Of a stretch of DNA of 64,000 nt, positions 874-50,780 are shown piece by piece. The notes under the pieces were generated by a model. That model did no database searches. It had not been told where the DNA came from and was given only the letters and a program-made list of their open reading frames with translations. How positions within the stretch are numbered: position 1 is the stretch's first letter; each line of letters starts with the position of its first letter. The stretch is from Octopus vulgaris (Eukaryota), in NCBI GenBank assembly GCA_951406725.2, contig OX597827.1, forward strand, positions 8,494,001-8,558,000, in the 5' to 3' direction. Both the position numbers and the translations under genes were made by a program.

Positions 874-1895
874 CACTTTGGCATTCATATTACTCTGTTG
901 ACTGAAATGTTTATTTATCCACATTGTTTGGAATTAAACATTCATTACCTCATACCTATTTCTTTATTACCCACAAGGGGATAAACATAGAGGGGACAAA
1001 CAAGGACAGACATAGGTATTAAGTCGATTACATCGACCCCCCAGTGCGTAACTGGTACTTAATTTATCGACCCCGAAAGGATGAAAGGCAAAGTCGACCT
1101 CTGCGGAATTTGAACTCAGAACGTAAAGACATACGAAATACCCATTTCTTTCTTACCCACAAGGGGCTACACATAGAGGGGACAAACAAGGACAGACATA
1201 GGTATTAAGTCGATTACATCGACCCCCAGTGCGTAACTGGTACTTAATTTATCGACCCCGAAAGGATGAAAGGCAAAGTCGACCTCGGCGGAATTTGAAC
1301 TCAGAACGTAAAGACAGACGAAATACCTATTTCTTTACTACCCACAAGGGGCTAAACATAGAGGGGACAAACAAGGACAGACATAGGTATTAAGTCGATT
1401 ACATCGACCCCCAGTGCGTAACTGGTACTTAATTTATCGACCCCGAAAGGATGAAAGGCAAAGTCGACCTCGGCGGAATTTGAACTCAGAACGTAACGAC
1501 AGACGAAATACCTATTTCTTTATTACCCACAAGGGGCTAAACATAGAGGGGACAAACAAGGACAGACATAGGTATTAAGTCAATTACATCGACCCTCAGT
1601 GCGTAACTGGTACTTAATTTATCGACCCCGAAAGGATGAAAAGCAAAGTCGACCTCGGCGGAATTTGAACTCAGAACGTAACAATAGACGAAATACCGCT
1701 GAGCATTTTGCCCGGCGTGCTAACGTTTCTGCCAGCCCGCCGTCTTATTACCTCATACCTTTGAGATTTCAATAATGTGGTTGTTTAGTTTTAGAATGAC
1801 ATTGTAGGGTAGGTAGGAGAAGCTGGATCAGATCAGTTTGGCCATTAAACAGGCAGAATATTTTGGCTGGATACAGTCAGTTTACATTTAAAGGG
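874..1895. mobile_element. Old TTAA-flanked (piggyBac-type) MITE hosting the family B array
   Basis: TTAA-CACTTT at 870 and AAAGGG-TTAA at 1890-1899. The short TIRs are degenerate. Confidence 0.4.
958..1746 (-). mobile_element. Family B SINE (tRNA-like head, Meta-like domain) as a tandem tetramer
   Basis: One head at about 1700-1746 plus four about 185 bp units. 14 bp TSD ATTACCTCATACCT at 944-957 and 1747-1760. The domain CTTTCATCCTTTCGGGGTCGATAAATTAAGTACCAG resembles the MetaSINE domain (from recall). Confidence 0.88.
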
Positions 1896-3166: not shown

Positions 3167-3401
3167 TATTTCTTTATTGCCTACAAGGGGCTAAGCACAG
3201 AGGGGACAAACAAGGACAGACAAAAGGATTAAGTCAATTGCATCGATCCCCGTGCGTAACTGGTACTTGATTTATCGACCCCGAAAGGATGAAAGGCAAA
3301 GTCGACCTCGGCGGAATTTGAACCCAGAACGTAGTGGCAGACAAAATACCACTAAGCATTTTGCCAAGTGTGCTAACGTTTCTGCCAGCTTGCTGCCTTA
3401 A
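3167..3401 (-). mobile_element. Family B SINE monomer
   Basis: Full head and tail. 16 bp TSD ACTTCTAC(C/T)TGTTTCT at 3151-3166 and 3402-3417. Confidence 0.9.
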
Positions 3402-13175: not shown

Positions 13176-13826
13176 TGTGTTATTCTCAGTCTTCAAATGT
13201 ATGGATGAATATATCATCGCCATCATTGTCATTGCAACTAAGCTTTAATACTTTTATCCAATTGCGAGCAAGGAGAGCTTCGTAGACTAGATAGCAAGTT
13301 CCTGGCAAAAATAATTCATATCTTATTTTTCAATTCTTCGATTTAACCATTTTCACTTCATTTACATCACTAATACTCTATAGAAAGGCATGAAGACAAT
13401 TTCATTTCACTTCCCTTATAAATATGAAGAATTGTAACAATGTGAGAAATCAATATTCTTTAGCCTGAAGCCACAGCACAACTCTCCCATCTATTTCCAG
13501 GTAATATATTCTACGTATTAGAAAAGCTATAGCAATGAATGTATTTATATTTTCTACTCTAACTCTAATTTTCCTTATAGAAATGATAAAATTATGCTGT
13601 GGCTCAAACTTTGTATACAATAAAAGATCCCAAACTTGTATTAAATCAGAGTTGATTCTATAAAAGTATATTGCTTAACCCTTTTGTGATTGTATTTTTA
13701 ATGACAGACACCAACACACATGTAGGCTTAGCTGCATGGTTATGATGTTTGCTTCAGAACCATGTGGCTTTGGGATTGCTCCTACTTCATGGCATCTTGG
13801 GCGAGTACCTTATATTATAACTCTGA

Positions 13827-15161
13827 AGGCGGTGAGCTGGCAGAATCGTTAGCACGCCAGGTGAAATGCTGAGCGGTATTTTGTATGCCGCTACGTTCTG
13901 AGTTCAAATTCCGCCGAGGTCGACTTTGCCTTTCATCCTTTCGGGGTCGATAAATTAAGTACCAGTTTCGCAATGGGGTCGATGTAATCGACTTAATCCC
14001 TTTGTCTGTCCTTGTTTGTCCCTCTAAGTTTAGCCCCTTGTGGGTAGTAAATAAATAGGTATTTCATCTGCCGCTACATTCTGAGTTCAAATTCAGCCGA
14101 GGTCGACTTTGCCTTTTATCCTTTCGGGGTTGATAAATTAAGTACCAGTTTCGCACTGGGGTCGATGTAATTGACTTAATCCCTTTGTCTGTCCTTGTTT
14201 GTCCCCTCTATGTTTAGCCCCTTGTGGGTAGTTAATAAATAGGTATTTCGTCTGCTGTTACCTTCTGAGTTCAAATTCCACCGAGGTCGACTTTGCCTTT
14301 CATCCTTTCGGGGTCAATTAAATAAGTACCAGTTTCGCACTGGGGTCGATGTAATCGACTTAATCCCTTTGTCTGTCCTTGTTTGTCCCCTATATGTTTA
14401 GCCCCTTGTGGGTAGTAAATAAATAGGTATTTCATCTGCCGCTACATTCTGAGTTCAAATTCCGCCGAGGTCAACTTTGCCTTTCATCCTTTCGGGGTCG
14501 ATAAATTAAGTACCAGTTTCGCACTGGGATCGATGTAATTGACTTAATCCCTTTGTCTGTCCTTGTTTGTCCGCTCTATGTTTAGCCCCTTGTGGGTAGT
14601 AAATAAATAGGTATTTCATCTGCCGCTACATTCTGAGTTCAAATTCAGCCAAGGTCGACTTTGCCTTTCATCCTTTCGGGGTCGATAAATTAAGTACCAG
14701 TTTCGCACTGGGATCGATGTAATTGACTTAATCCCTTTGTCTGTCCTTGTTTGTCCCCTCTATGTTTAGCCCCTTGTGGGTAGTTAATAAATAGGTATTT
14801 CGTCTGCTGTTACCTTCTGAGTTCAAATTCCGCCGAGGTCGACTTTGCCTTTCATCCTTTCGGGGTTGATAAATTAAGTACCAGTTTCGCACTGGGGTCG
14901 ATGTAATCGACTTAATCCCTTTGTCTGTCCTTGTTTGTCCCCTCTATGTTTAGCCCCTTGTGGGTAGTTAATAAATAGGTATTTCGTCTGCTGTTACCTT
15001 CTGAGTTCAAATTCCACCAAGGTCGACTTTGCCTTTCATCCTTTCGGGGTCAATTAAATAAGTACCAGTTTCGCACTGGGGTCGATGTAATCGACTTAAT
15101 CCCTTTGTCTGTCCTTGTTTGTCCCCTCTATGTTTAGCCCCTTGTGGGTAGTAAATAAATA
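13827..15161 (+). mobile_element. Family B SINE as a tandem heptamer, nested in a decayed family A SINE
   Basis: One head plus seven about 184 bp units. Perfect 16 bp TSD TATATTATAACTCTGA at 13811-13826 and 15162-15177. The host SINE halves (about 13722-13826 and 15178-15208) rejoin across the insertion. Confidence 0.92.
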
Positions 15162-30473: not shown

Positions 30474-30998
30474 CATCATCATCACTATCATCATCATCAT
30501 CGTTTACCACCTGCTTTCCATGCTGGCATGGGTTGGACGATTTGACTGAGGGCTGGTGAACCATATGGCTGCACCAGGCTCCAATTTTGATCTGGCAGAA
30601 TTTCTACAGCTGGATGCCCTTCCTAATGCCAACCACTCCAAGAGTTAGTCAGTGCTTTTACATGCCACCAGCATGAGGGCCAGTCAGGCAGTACTGGCAA
30701 TGGCCATGCTCAAATGGTGCTTTTTATGTGCCACCAGTACAGGAGCCAGTCCAGCAGCACTGACAACAACCTCGTTTGAATGCTTTTTCACATACCACCG
30801 GCACAAGTGCCAGTAAGGCAATGCAGGTAACAATCACGCTCGAATGGTGCTTTTTACATGCCACCAGCACGGAGGCCAGGCGAGGCTGGCAAACGGCCAC
30901 GATCGGATGGTGCTTTTTACATGCCACCGGCACGGAGGCCAGGCGAGGCTGGCAAACAGCCACGATCGGATGGTGCTTTTTACGTGCCACCGGCACGT
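30474..30998 (-). mobile_element. Family C retroposon with 63 bp internal tandem units
   Basis: (CAT)n tail. Units starting ATGGTGCTTTTTAC at 30844, 30907 and 30970. Confidence 0.82.
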
Positions 30999-31099
30999 AA
31001 AAAAAAGACGGAAAGCATAGTCACAATCCTAAAAAGTAACAGGTATAAGAAACATTCCTTCAACCCAATTCCACTTGTAAGGTATTACAAAGTAGAAAA

Positions 31100-31330
31100 G
31101 GCAGCGAGCTGGCAGAATCATTAGCACGCCGGGTGAAATGCTAAGCGATATTTCGTCTGCCGTTACGTTCTGAGTTCAAATTCCACCGAGGTTGACTTTG
31201 CCTTTCATTCTTTCGGGGTCGATAAATAAAGTACCAGTTACGCACTGGGGTCGATATAATCGACTTAATCCTTTTGTCTGTCCTTGTTTGTCCCCTCTAT
31301 GTTTAGACCCTTGTGGGCAATAAAGAAATA
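31100..31330 (+). mobile_element. Family B SINE monomer
   Basis: 17 bp TSD TATTACAA(A/G)GTAGAAAA at 31083-31099 and 31331-31347. Confidence 0.9.
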
Positions 31331-32271
31331 TATTACAAGGTAGAAAACACTTGTCTATGGTGCTGTACAGTGGGATTGAACCTGGAGCCCTATGGCTGCA
31401 AAACAAACTTCCTACACCTATGACTATATTCTCAATTCAAATCCAATAAGAATCGACTTTCCACAATCTCAGGTCAGTCAATAAAACAAGTTCCATTTGA
31501 TTCAGCGAACCACATTCTCAGTTCAAATCCAGTAAGGATCAACTATGATCCCTCTAGGGTCAGTCAATAAAATAAATACCAATTGATTTGGTGAACTACT
31601 GTGTACTCTAGCTAGTTAGTAACTTGTGTATCTTTCATTGTCACTTTTGTGTAGTTCTTCGTATTTGTTCCCCTGCAAAATATCATTACTATAATTGGGA
31701 ACATGGCAAGTGCTGTTTTATAGCCGTAAGTTTTCAGTGAACTGAATCTACCACTTAATTTCAATTCTCTAATGAATCTACAATGAATCTACTCTCTGAT
31801 GTGAATGGTCCACTTCAGAAAAAAATATGAACAATTTCTTTTTCCCTACCTACTATTCCTCTTTAAAAAAAAACCCAAAGTTCTGATACATCATTCCTGA
31901 CAGTAGGAATCATTATTATAATTGATATAGTGTAAATTGTCAGTGAATAGGCATAGATATATGTATGACAAAACATTTGACCACTTAATAGTATATGTTG
32001 CTATTAACAGATGAAACAAATGTGACTATATTGTTATATATTTGTGTGAAGTAACTTTCACGATATCTCAGGACAACACAAGAGCATAAGTCAAGTCAAA
32101 TACTTGGTAAGCATGTACAATGCTAAGGTATACATGCACACACACACACACAATCATAAATTCATGGGGTATGAGAGATGAATATACATATATTTTTAAC
32201 CACATGATTTTCTTTGGATTACTAAGTGAATTGCTACGCAAGTTCATAAGATGAACTTTTTGTGACAGAGT

Positions 32272-37194: not shown

Positions 37195-37972
37195 AATCCT
37201 TTTCTTTTCTACTATAAGCACAATGCCTGCAAATTTTGGAGGAGGAGGCTAGTCGATTACATGGAGCTTAGTACTTGACAGATACTCTACTTTATTAACC
37301 CCGAAAAAGATGAAAGACAAAGTTGACCACAGTGGAATTTGAACTCAGAGTGTAGCGGCTGACGAAATACCTATTTCTTTACTACCCACAAGGGGCTAAA
37401 CACAGAGAGGACAAACAAGGACAGACAAACAGATTAAGTCAATTATATCGACCCCAGTGCGTAACTGGTACTTATTTAATCGACCCCGAAAGGATGAAAG
37501 GCAAAGTCGACCTCGGCGGAATTTGAACTCAGAACGTAGCAGCAAACAAAATACCTATTTCTTTACTACCCACAAGGGGCTAAACACAGAGAGGACAAAC
37601 AAGGACAGACAAACAGATTAAGTCAATTATATCGACCCCAGTGCGTAACTGGTACTTATTTAATCGACCCCGAAAGGATGAAAGGCAAAGTCGACCTCGG
37701 CGGAATTTGAACTCAGAACGTAGCAGCAAACAAAATACCTATTTCTTTACTACCCACAAGGGGCTAAACACAGAGAGAACAAACAAGGACAGACAAACAG
37801 ATTAAGTCGATTATATTGACCCCAGTGCGTAACTGGTACTTATTTAATCGACCCTGAAACGATGAAAGGCAAAGTCGACCTTGGCGGAATTTGAACTCAG
37901 AACGTAGCGGCAGACAAAATACTGCTAAGCACTTCGCCTGGCGTGCTAACGATTCTGCCAGCTAGCCACTTT
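37195..37972 (-). mobile_element. Family B SINE array: head, three young units and one old unit with a different tail
   Basis: GTCGACC at about 37506, 37690 and 37874. Diverged terminal unit at 37195-37371. Confidence 0.88.
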
Positions 37973-38014
37973 CAAATGATAATAATAATAACGACGATGA
38001 TGATGATGATGATG

Positions 38015-38226
38015 GTTTCAAATTTTTTCACAATGCCAGCAATTTCAGGGAATGCATCAATCAATTACATTGATCCCAGTGCTCGACTAGTACTTAGTTT
38101 ATTGGCCCTGAATTGATGAAAGATAACGTCAACCGCAGAGGAATTTGAACTCAGAATGCAATAACAGACAAAAATGCCACTAAACATTTTGCCCTGTGTG
38201 CTAAGGATTCTGCCAGCTCCCTGCCT

Positions 38227-38261
<35 letters not shown>

Positions 38262-38476
38262 CCTTTCTACTAAAGGCACAAGTCCTGAAATTTTGGGGGA
38301 GGGGACTAGTTGATTACATTGGCCCCAGTGTTTCACTGGTACTTAATTTATTGATTCCAAAAGGATGAAAGGCAAAGTCGACCTCAGTGGTATTTGAACT
38401 CAGAACATAGTGGCAGATGAAATACTGCCGAGCATTTTGTCCAGTATGCTAGCAATTATGCCAGCTCGCCGCCTTT
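38015..38476 (-). mobile_element. Two older family B SINE monomers with the alternative tail
   Basis: Copies at about 38015-38227 and 38260-38476 share head and Meta-like domain but end in ...CAAAATTTCAGG.CTTGTGCC...(ATT)n-type tails. Confidence 0.8.
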
Positions 38477-50383: not shown

Positions 50384-50550
50384 TGCAGGCTTAGCTGGAT
50401 GGGGGTGCTTGTCTCCCCTTTGTAAGCATAAGGACACAGGAAATGTGTCAAGGCCGACAGGAAGCGTTGGTGCTTCCTAGGATTAAATAGCGATGGTGTG
50501 ATTCCTTTTATGGGACTGTCACGTTAAGTAGACGGTATACAACTGTATAA

Positions 50551-50780
50551 GGCGGCGAGCTGGCAGAAACGTTAGCACGCCAGGCAAAATGCTTAGCAGT
50601 ATTTCGGCTGTGTTATATTGTGAGTTCAAATTCCGCCGAGGTCGACTTTGCCTTTCATCCTTTCGGGGTCGATAAATTAAGTACCAGTTACGCACTGGGG
50701 TCGATGTAATCGACTTAATACCTATGTCTGTCCTTGTTTGTCCCCTCTGTGTTTAGCCCCTTATGGGTAATAAAGAAATT
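50551..50780 (+). mobile_element. Family B SINE monomer
   Basis: 17 bp TSD GGTATACAACTGT(A/T)TAA at 50534-50550 and 50781-50797. Confidence 0.9.

Follow-up and report, generated by a model that had tools for sequence, protein, structure and literature searches.

Among the closest described systems, SINEU-3 of crocodilians is mobilised by Tx1-Mar LINEs and has Mariner as its target, according to the available part of the source (PMC4494074). For R2Ol, read-through into the target raises efficiency, 100 nt doing so more than 4 nt (PMC6795142), and annealing of R2 cDNA to the upstream sequence gives junctions without duplication (PMC11331408), as described in the accessible parts of these papers. 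The accessible text on the B2 and Dip SINEs places 40-49% of copies in multimers of up to eight units (PMC8466645). A literature search, covering mainly open-access main text, returned neither self-insertion by an octopus SINE nor a self-targeting SINE that drops its head. The array considered here lies in a stretch of 64,000 nt from Octopus vulgaris (GCA_951406725.2, contig OX597827.1, positions 8,494,001 to 8,558,000), referred to below as the window. Self-insertion is likely to build thousands of head-to-tail SINE arrays of this kind, with no sign of an RNA circle.

The array occupies the minus strand at 1746-958 and consists of one head followed by four 185-bp units within one perfect 14-bp TSD, ATTACCTCATACCT, with the same letters at 944-957 and 1747-1760 (Table 1); TRF returns a period of 185 and a copy number of 4.0. 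These coordinates, together with the identical TSD copies, agree with an earlier note on this DNA, in which four units, one head and one 14-bp TSD had been described. The units begin again at GGTATTTC, or nt 50 when the monomer is counted from its AAG start; the note, counting from a different start, put this same place at about nt 47. The spelling it gave for the junction is indeed fixed, except that the third junction reads AAAGAAATG and does not end in ATA. Its single Pol III-type head stands insofar as there is one head with one A-box-like motif, the sole motif in single copy, but a B-box-like motif is present in every unit.

The tetramer units show 4-9 pairwise differences and have in common a rare run of five G (5-G), matched exactly at 159 places in the genome; none of the five other 5-G arrays compared carries the same unit pattern. 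Since its four units derive from one source lineage, the tetramer was most likely, after formation of the first junction, either extended by local duplication or delivered as a whole by a multimer RNA with priming at the AGGTAT site, reiterative reverse transcription being a less likely route. Furthermore, because the units are homogeneous and the TSD is perfect at a non-SINE AGGTAT site, the tetramer itself gives no evidence of serial insertion by unrelated copies. An 18S rRNA fragment lies ~150 bp from the tetramer, at window ~560-790 (Rfam hit 1-810), and is probably a retroposed or dispersed piece of rDNA.

Two further arrays had been placed at 13827-15161 and 37195-37972. The former is present with its junction, seven units and a 16-bp TSD, and only its start needs a small correction, to 13826; variants are shared in blocks spanning the junction, which are signs of DNA-level duplication or of a multimer source. 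The latter does contain three family-B units, and its units 2 and 3 are identical, but it starts at 37200, its fourth unit belongs to another tail family and its end is (ATT)n. Together with two older A-type SINEs, this third array forms a head-to-tail stack in an ATT/ATC microsatellite (window 37200-38475); A tails favour (ATT)n sites. Elsewhere in the window, a GC-rich tandem repeat (30652-30997, 63 bp in 5.4 copies) has no relation to the SINE, and the few reads of run X22 on 31040-31400 show short tandem units holding nt 50-62 plus the tail only (54-73 nt).

Table 1. Features of the tetramer, other SINE arrays and monomers in the window, and arrays elsewhere in the genome
Feature	Position	Strand	Remarks
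Downstream TSD copy	944..957	-	sense AGGTATGAGGTAAT; first letters agree with the junction sequence AGGTAT
3' tail, ~42 nt, in all units	958..999	-	83-93% to RT/zf-RVT (L1/Tx1-type) LINE 3' ends of the same genome
Unit 4	958..1142	-	no head; adjoins TSD
Unit 3	1143..1327	-	no head; tail end AAAGAAATG
Unit 2	1328..1512	-	no head
Unit 1	1513..1697	-	nt 50-234
Private T4 run in unit 1		-	nt 105
B-box-like motif of unit 1	1670-1660	-	by consensus
Self-insertion site GGTATTTC of unit 1	1697-1690	-	
SINE head	1698..1746	-	nt 1-49, single copy in array
Secondary self-insertion site in head	1730	-	nt 17
A-box-like motif in head	1734-1723	-	by consensus
Upstream TSD copy	1747..1760	-	identity 14/14
Family-B monomer	3167..3399	-	GGGC-type tail; TSD start AGAA (class of nt-17 junction)
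Second array	13826..15161	+	head + 7 units; 16-bp TSD; junction variant AAATAAATA
Family-B monomer	31098..31330	+	GGGC-tail subfamily; TSD start TAT
Third array	37200..37972	-	head + 3 family-B units + one older family-A body; (ATT)n tail
Family-B monomer	50549..50780	+	TSD start GGTAT; same guide-like start, non-SINE site
L386	G000:C5:135572600-135576600		head + 15 near-identical units; one TSD; non-GGT site
L391	G000:C14:84690400-84691700		run of 65-66-nt head repeats, full copy behind
L392	G000:C20:9686700-9688400		array of 217-bp units on nt-17 junction

The SINE monomer is ~233 nt long with TSDs of ~13-17 bp, and 241 elements of its superfamily are found in 1.264 Mb. Head and core (nt 1 to ~168) are common to the superfamily, and four tail types occur on this core: A1 and A2 (both old), A3 (younger) and B. 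In family-B copies the TSD begins directly behind AAAGAAATA. The head is putatively of tRNA-type Pol III origin, from A- and B-box-like motifs matched to their consensus; ARAGORN and Rfam detected no tRNA in the head or the array. The unit consensus contains no T4 run, the fold of the whole monomer is unremarkable (z -0.45), Rfam at E<=1 gives no ribozyme hit in the unit, and the hammerhead core CTGANGA is absent from both strands across a junction. The last 27-46 nt of the B tail match the 3' ends of many RT/zf-RVT LINEs at 78-93%, the clade label L1/Tx1-type being provisionally assigned to these LINEs by Pfam. A family search in which 150 of 25,804 LINE candidates were scored recovered tail-sharing LINEs, the exact partner family not being among them, and a local ORF scan found no partner LINE. 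The SINE is short, dispersed, of high copy number and flanked by TSDs and shares its 3' tail with LINEs, which are the features of a LINE-mobilised element; the L1/Tx1-type LINEs with like tails are presumably what mobilises it. Several poly(A)-less LINE families (L297, L318, L322, L326; L306, L310, L312; L300, L337) each have their own recurrent landing sequence, and some poly(A)-less LINEs stand in tandem at a spacing of ~5.4 kb.

Across the 2.8-Gb genome, one junction spelling is matched exactly 33,435 times and its reversed control 0 times, and therefore the junction does not arise by chance; its presence in contigs from other public runs also shows that it is not an assembly artefact. Among the contigs of those runs that were listed, none spans both the flank and the tetramer array, nor was an allele with an empty site seen, and the raw runs gave 9 (X21), 227 (X22) and 0 (X23) reads, too few for a junction census. 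The listed junctions are spread over many contigs. In a 1.264-Mb sample, which comprised the window with its neighbours plus seven more regions (one picked as junction-rich), 60 of 137 tails continue into more SINE, a figure inflated by later duplication and obtained after leaving out 12 of 149 tail matches that were weak or near an edge. Duplicates from overlapping searches (L012, L013, L021, L025, L027, L157, L190, L201) and 11 of the 241 elements, cut by locus edges, were also left out before counting. The register is exact in 53 of the 60 junctions, and the remaining 7 mostly represent the same junction with small indels. At the level of loci, the junction is present in 33 of 98 with a B tail; 1, 2, 3, 4 and 6 junctions occur at 21, 7, 3, 1 and 1 of these, respectively, corresponding to a ~threefold drop per added unit. 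Both proportions (33/98 loci, 60/137 tails) lie above the mark of >20% of copies in one target used in the available part of PMC4494074.

This fixed register bears out the proposal of a reproducible mechanism instead of random slippage, and the scattered junction positions that the earlier note had named as evidence against such a mechanism are not seen in this sample. The junction is not unique: a second fixed junction, at which the tail meets nt 17, is matched exactly 2,685 times, and 86 of the first 100 matches listed have GGGC tails. The GGGC-tail end repeats AAGAAA, and the association of these tails with the nt-17 junction points to a dependence of the junction on what lies behind the tail. 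The junction hairpin, proposed as a mimic of the head hairpin, does exist, but it is marginal at -1.4 kcal/mol, the head hairpin reaching -3.2; it is too weak for a mechanism and inapplicable to the nt-17 junction. As separate observations, a family-B copy with a TSD has landed at GGTAC in the antisense strand of a further SINE (L193), and two headless arrays (L014, L030) have nt 52 as their first letter, L030 being inside a local duplication.

Two-headed nested insertions, with 75 exact matches genome-wide, show that insertion occurs at nt 50 of older copies. At 23 of the 29 distinct two-headed loci read, nt 1-65 of the old head precede a full copy, behind which come an A, nt 50-65 once more and the old body; by our count, non-consensus letters are common to both sides at no fewer than 9. 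At these loci, a genomic SINE has received an ordinary target-primed insertion, with nt 50-65 of the older copy as the TSD. A 5'-truncated tail of 28 nt at nt 50, likewise with a TSD, is present at L303.

Chimeras in which a B unit precedes an A1 body (B+A1) have 213 exact matches; 28 of the 30 read are one-headed and 2 two-headed, and 32 of 33 sampled junction loci are also one-headed. The A1 body differs by 0.148 from the B consensus, vs 0.161 for A1 monomers, and the B unit by 0.060. Compared with A1 heads, those of the chimeras are far younger (p 3e-5); they are slightly more diverged than B monomer heads (p 0.024), with a target-derived look in 3-5 of 25. The outer TSD mismatch, scored as the best 13-nt window with unscorable loci dropped (6/25 chimeras, 16/30 A1, 28/68 B) and thus on n = 14-40 per class, is 13.8% in the chimeras (19/25 scorable) and 12.1% in matched A1 monomers (14/30 scorable; p 0.53), compared with 5.8% in B monomers (40/68 scorable; p 2.5e-4) and 6.2% in age-matched young B monomers (20/36 scorable; p 0.002). 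Since the outer TSD has decayed like that of A1 and not like that of B, the old element was present first, and the young unit was added in place, most likely with replacement of the head. This dating of young-on-old chimeras by TSD and head is new evidence. Insertion of the whole chimera, as read from an unmatched TSD comparison, was overturned by the matched control. Over all loci, the TSD score of chimeras is 10.4 vs 9.3 for A1 monomers (p 0.087), a trend toward better kept chimera TSDs that would allow a minority of whole insertions; perfect TSDs also occur in some mosaic arrays whose last tail is the younger A3 (L016, L024, L208), and some chimeras may have inserted whole.

Of 26 B+A1 chimeras, 25 have donor-type letters at nt 57-68 of the new unit and only one has target-type letters. 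On this count, simple annealing of the overhang left by the TSD (nt 50-65) was rejected, and the whole head has to be taken as replaced. A uniform deletion between the two heads after insertion predicts an old 5' head in most chimeras, which is not observed; a deletion biased to the extreme 5' end could still be a route of head loss. The units of 18 B-B dimers differ at 6-35 sites, with a mean of ~18 vs 17.6 for random pairs, and the 38 clean arrays divide into 20 B+A and 18 B..B (two of the 20 being damaged B tails). Because dimer units are unrelated and arrays often end in non-B copies, a single RNA, a circle or a single master is excluded as the usual origin. Collectively, the two-headed insertions with their nt 50-65 TSD and the young-on-old chimeras in old TSDs support self-insertion at nt 50 of older family copies, one of the options that the earlier note had listed.

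Array growth leaves a different pattern. SINE arrays mostly contain 2-7 units, one having 15, and in those of at least three units internal neighbours show 9.2 differences vs 17.6 for random pairs, with a rare variant shared in 14 of 28. At L391 and L392, duplicated blocks have their register inside the units, which points to DNA-level expansion; up to six head repeats of 65-66 nt precede a full copy at L391, L156 and L166. Some arrays have thus been duplicated in place at the DNA level after junction formation. The 15-unit array (L386), whose units differ mainly in a 4- vs 5-G run, is the best candidate for reiterative reverse transcription or fast expansion.

Regarding the choice of landing site, a TSD starting with GGT is seen at 19 of the 39 insertions with a GGGT tail and at 0 of the 10 with a GGGC tail (p 0.004), a link between subfamily and target that could equally stem from different Tx1 endonucleases. 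At ordinary sites the match to GGTATTTC extends 3-7 nt from the nick with a gradual decay (19 cases), and the base preceding GGT is T in 10, A in 5 and C in 4 of the 19, never G. SINE nt-50 sites have been landed on in ~33 of 92 cases vs 3 of ~220 other GGTATTT sites, a ~25x preference that represents an upper bound, because arrays can also move whole. The short match and the preference for SINE sites fit pairing by read-through RNA. None of 70 LINE ends read lies at nt 50, and none was retrieved there via four tail patterns in this incomplete census, which fits a guide made of SINE RNA. An L1/Tx1-type LINE has its 3' end at nt 17 of a family-B SINE (1/10; L379, G000:C1:105508352-105511386).

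Taking into account the sequence patterns described above, it is probable that the SINE inserts at nt 50 of older family copies under the guidance of read-through RNA, that the old head is replaced and that the arrays then lengthen. Pol III read-through would place GGUAUUUC... (GGUAUUU...) 3' of the SINE tail, so that the transcript would read AAAGAAAUA and then GGUAUUUC; since the unit consensus is without a T4 run, array transcripts are expected to pass the junctions. The read-through would act as a heritable 3' guide that pairs with the nicked target, a 3-7 nt match being enough at ordinary sites and 100+ nt of homology favouring family copies. With L1/Tx1-type LINEs of like tail as the putative mobilising machinery, the head of the new cDNA would anneal to the old head and replace it, as in the R2 'anneal' junction, leaving a single head and headless units. 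From the dimer stage on, the array would be lengthened and homogenised, either through duplication at the DNA level or because multimer RNA is copied. A further-reaching proposal, possible but advanced only tentatively, is an RNA-guided self-homing SINE, in which the guide is the sequence behind the source tail, one landing in its own head founded a homing lineage, and reverse transcription in young arrays may re-copy one RNA. Such a lineage would overwrite the Pol III promoter of decayed copies with a fresh one and thereby create new multimeric sources.

The same self-insertion and head replacement could also proceed at a site set by a sequence-specific Tx1 endonuclease, one family per site, with only a minor part for read-through. 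Tx1 clades are often target-specific via their endonuclease, as the accessible part of PMC4494074 describes, and the recurrent targets of several LINE families in this genome, the LINE end at nt 17 and the lack of G before GGT at ordinary targets are all in line with this reading. It is nevertheless unlikely, considering that the GGTATTT match begins exactly at the nick and decays gradually from 3 to 7 nt, that SINE sites are taken far more often than other GGTATTT sites, and that no LINE end falls at nt 50 among the 70 read or in the four tail patterns, with 150 of 25,804 candidates scored. A switch of the reverse transcriptase between RNAs in one event, with a jump at nt 50 (or 17) and insertion of the mosaic as a whole, is a decidedly poor prospect: it would explain the young head and donor-type nt 57-68 of the chimeras, the mosaic arrays in a single TSD, some of them perfect, and the enrichment of A3 tails in arrays, but the outer TSDs of B+A1 chimeras are as old as those of A1, unlike B, and such a switch is unable to make two-headed copies with an nt 50-65 TSD.

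A route through DNA only, by ectopic gene conversion or unequal crossing-over from multimers or from one multimer master, is very improbable. In-place duplication at L391, L392 and window 13826-15161, as well as the unequal recombination invoked for reptile SINE-derived satellites in the available part of PMC10702118, speak for such a route, but it accounts for growth and not for origin, and the TSD-bearing two-headed insertions largely refute it as the latter. In nearly all chimeras the body is A-type from ~nt 57-63 on, in place of crossovers anywhere in 120 homologous nt, and the tetramer's unit pattern does not recur in the other 5-G arrays. One dimer master, the other finding that the earlier note had held to be damaging, was likewise rejected, given that dimer units differ like random copies and the two junction types combine with many subfamilies. 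The slightest probability of all is assigned to arrays made by copying one RNA, or a 184-nt circle, over and over, by retrozyme-like rolling circle or programmed jump-back. Homogeneous arrays such as the tetramer and the 15-unit L386, together with the closeness of internal neighbours and their shared rare variants, speak for this process, and for such arrays reiteration on one RNA could still have played a part. As the origin of the junction, both a circular template and a programmed jump on one RNA, put forward in the earlier note, are not supported: the units of the 18 B-B dimers are as different as random pairs, the last unit frequently belongs to another family (20 B+A vs 18 B..B), and the unit gives no ribozyme hit and has no hammerhead core; moreover, the head is kept in nearly all arrays and junction-crossing blocks show DNA-level duplication.

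Read-through-guided self-insertion with head replacement would represent a dated, genome-scale natural case in which a passenger RNA uses homology at both ends to steer and seal its insertion, the same principle as in engineered R2 insertion but here with an L1/Tx1-type machine. It would also provide a concrete path by which a dispersed SINE turns into a tandem repeat, a transition for which the work on reptile satellites relied on unequal recombination. Because old copies would gain a young promoter head, age estimates for the family and its repeat annotation would be distorted.

By analogy, the system appears to combine Tx1/SINEU-like targeting with R2-type homology at both ends, while its products look like the sSat arrays of reptiles. 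The following comparisons hold for the available parts of the sources cited. Non-LTR retrozymes also form tandem short units at dispersed loci, but they involve hammerhead ribozymes, circles and a Penelope partner (bioRxiv 10.64898/2026.07.22.740005), none of which was found for the octopus SINE; units from one monomer, as in retrozymes, are seen only in homogeneous arrays such as the tetramer and not in the dimers, and the octopus SINE array is no retrozyme. The head-to-tail multimers of B2, Dip and Ves are built of full-length units with heads and have no internal fixed junction, their origin being left open (PMC8466645). Squamate sSat arrays share with the octopus SINE the tandem part-SINE units with one longer terminal unit and a homogeneity that increases with length; they differ in the unequal recombination invoked, in taxon-dependent unit limits and in a subtelomeric location, and the accessible text describes neither TSD-defined self-insertion nor two-headed intermediates (PMC10702118). 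With R2 of 28S rDNA, the likeness lies in target sequence flanking the RNA on both sides, which yields precise priming and a seamless 5' junction; R2 is autonomous, with a restriction-like endonuclease and an rDNA target, whereas in the octopus SINE, for which the steps are read from sequence, the passenger's own head and read-through would supply the homology and the target multiplies too. SINEU-3 resembles it in the Tx1-type mobilisation presumed for the octopus SINE, a fixed spot in an abundant repeat and tandem copies by sequential insertion. In contrast to SINEU-3, where whole tandem copies sandwich a TSD and the target is another element, the octopus SINE targets itself, and ~93-97% of its junction loci have lost a head (two-headed 2/30, 1/33).
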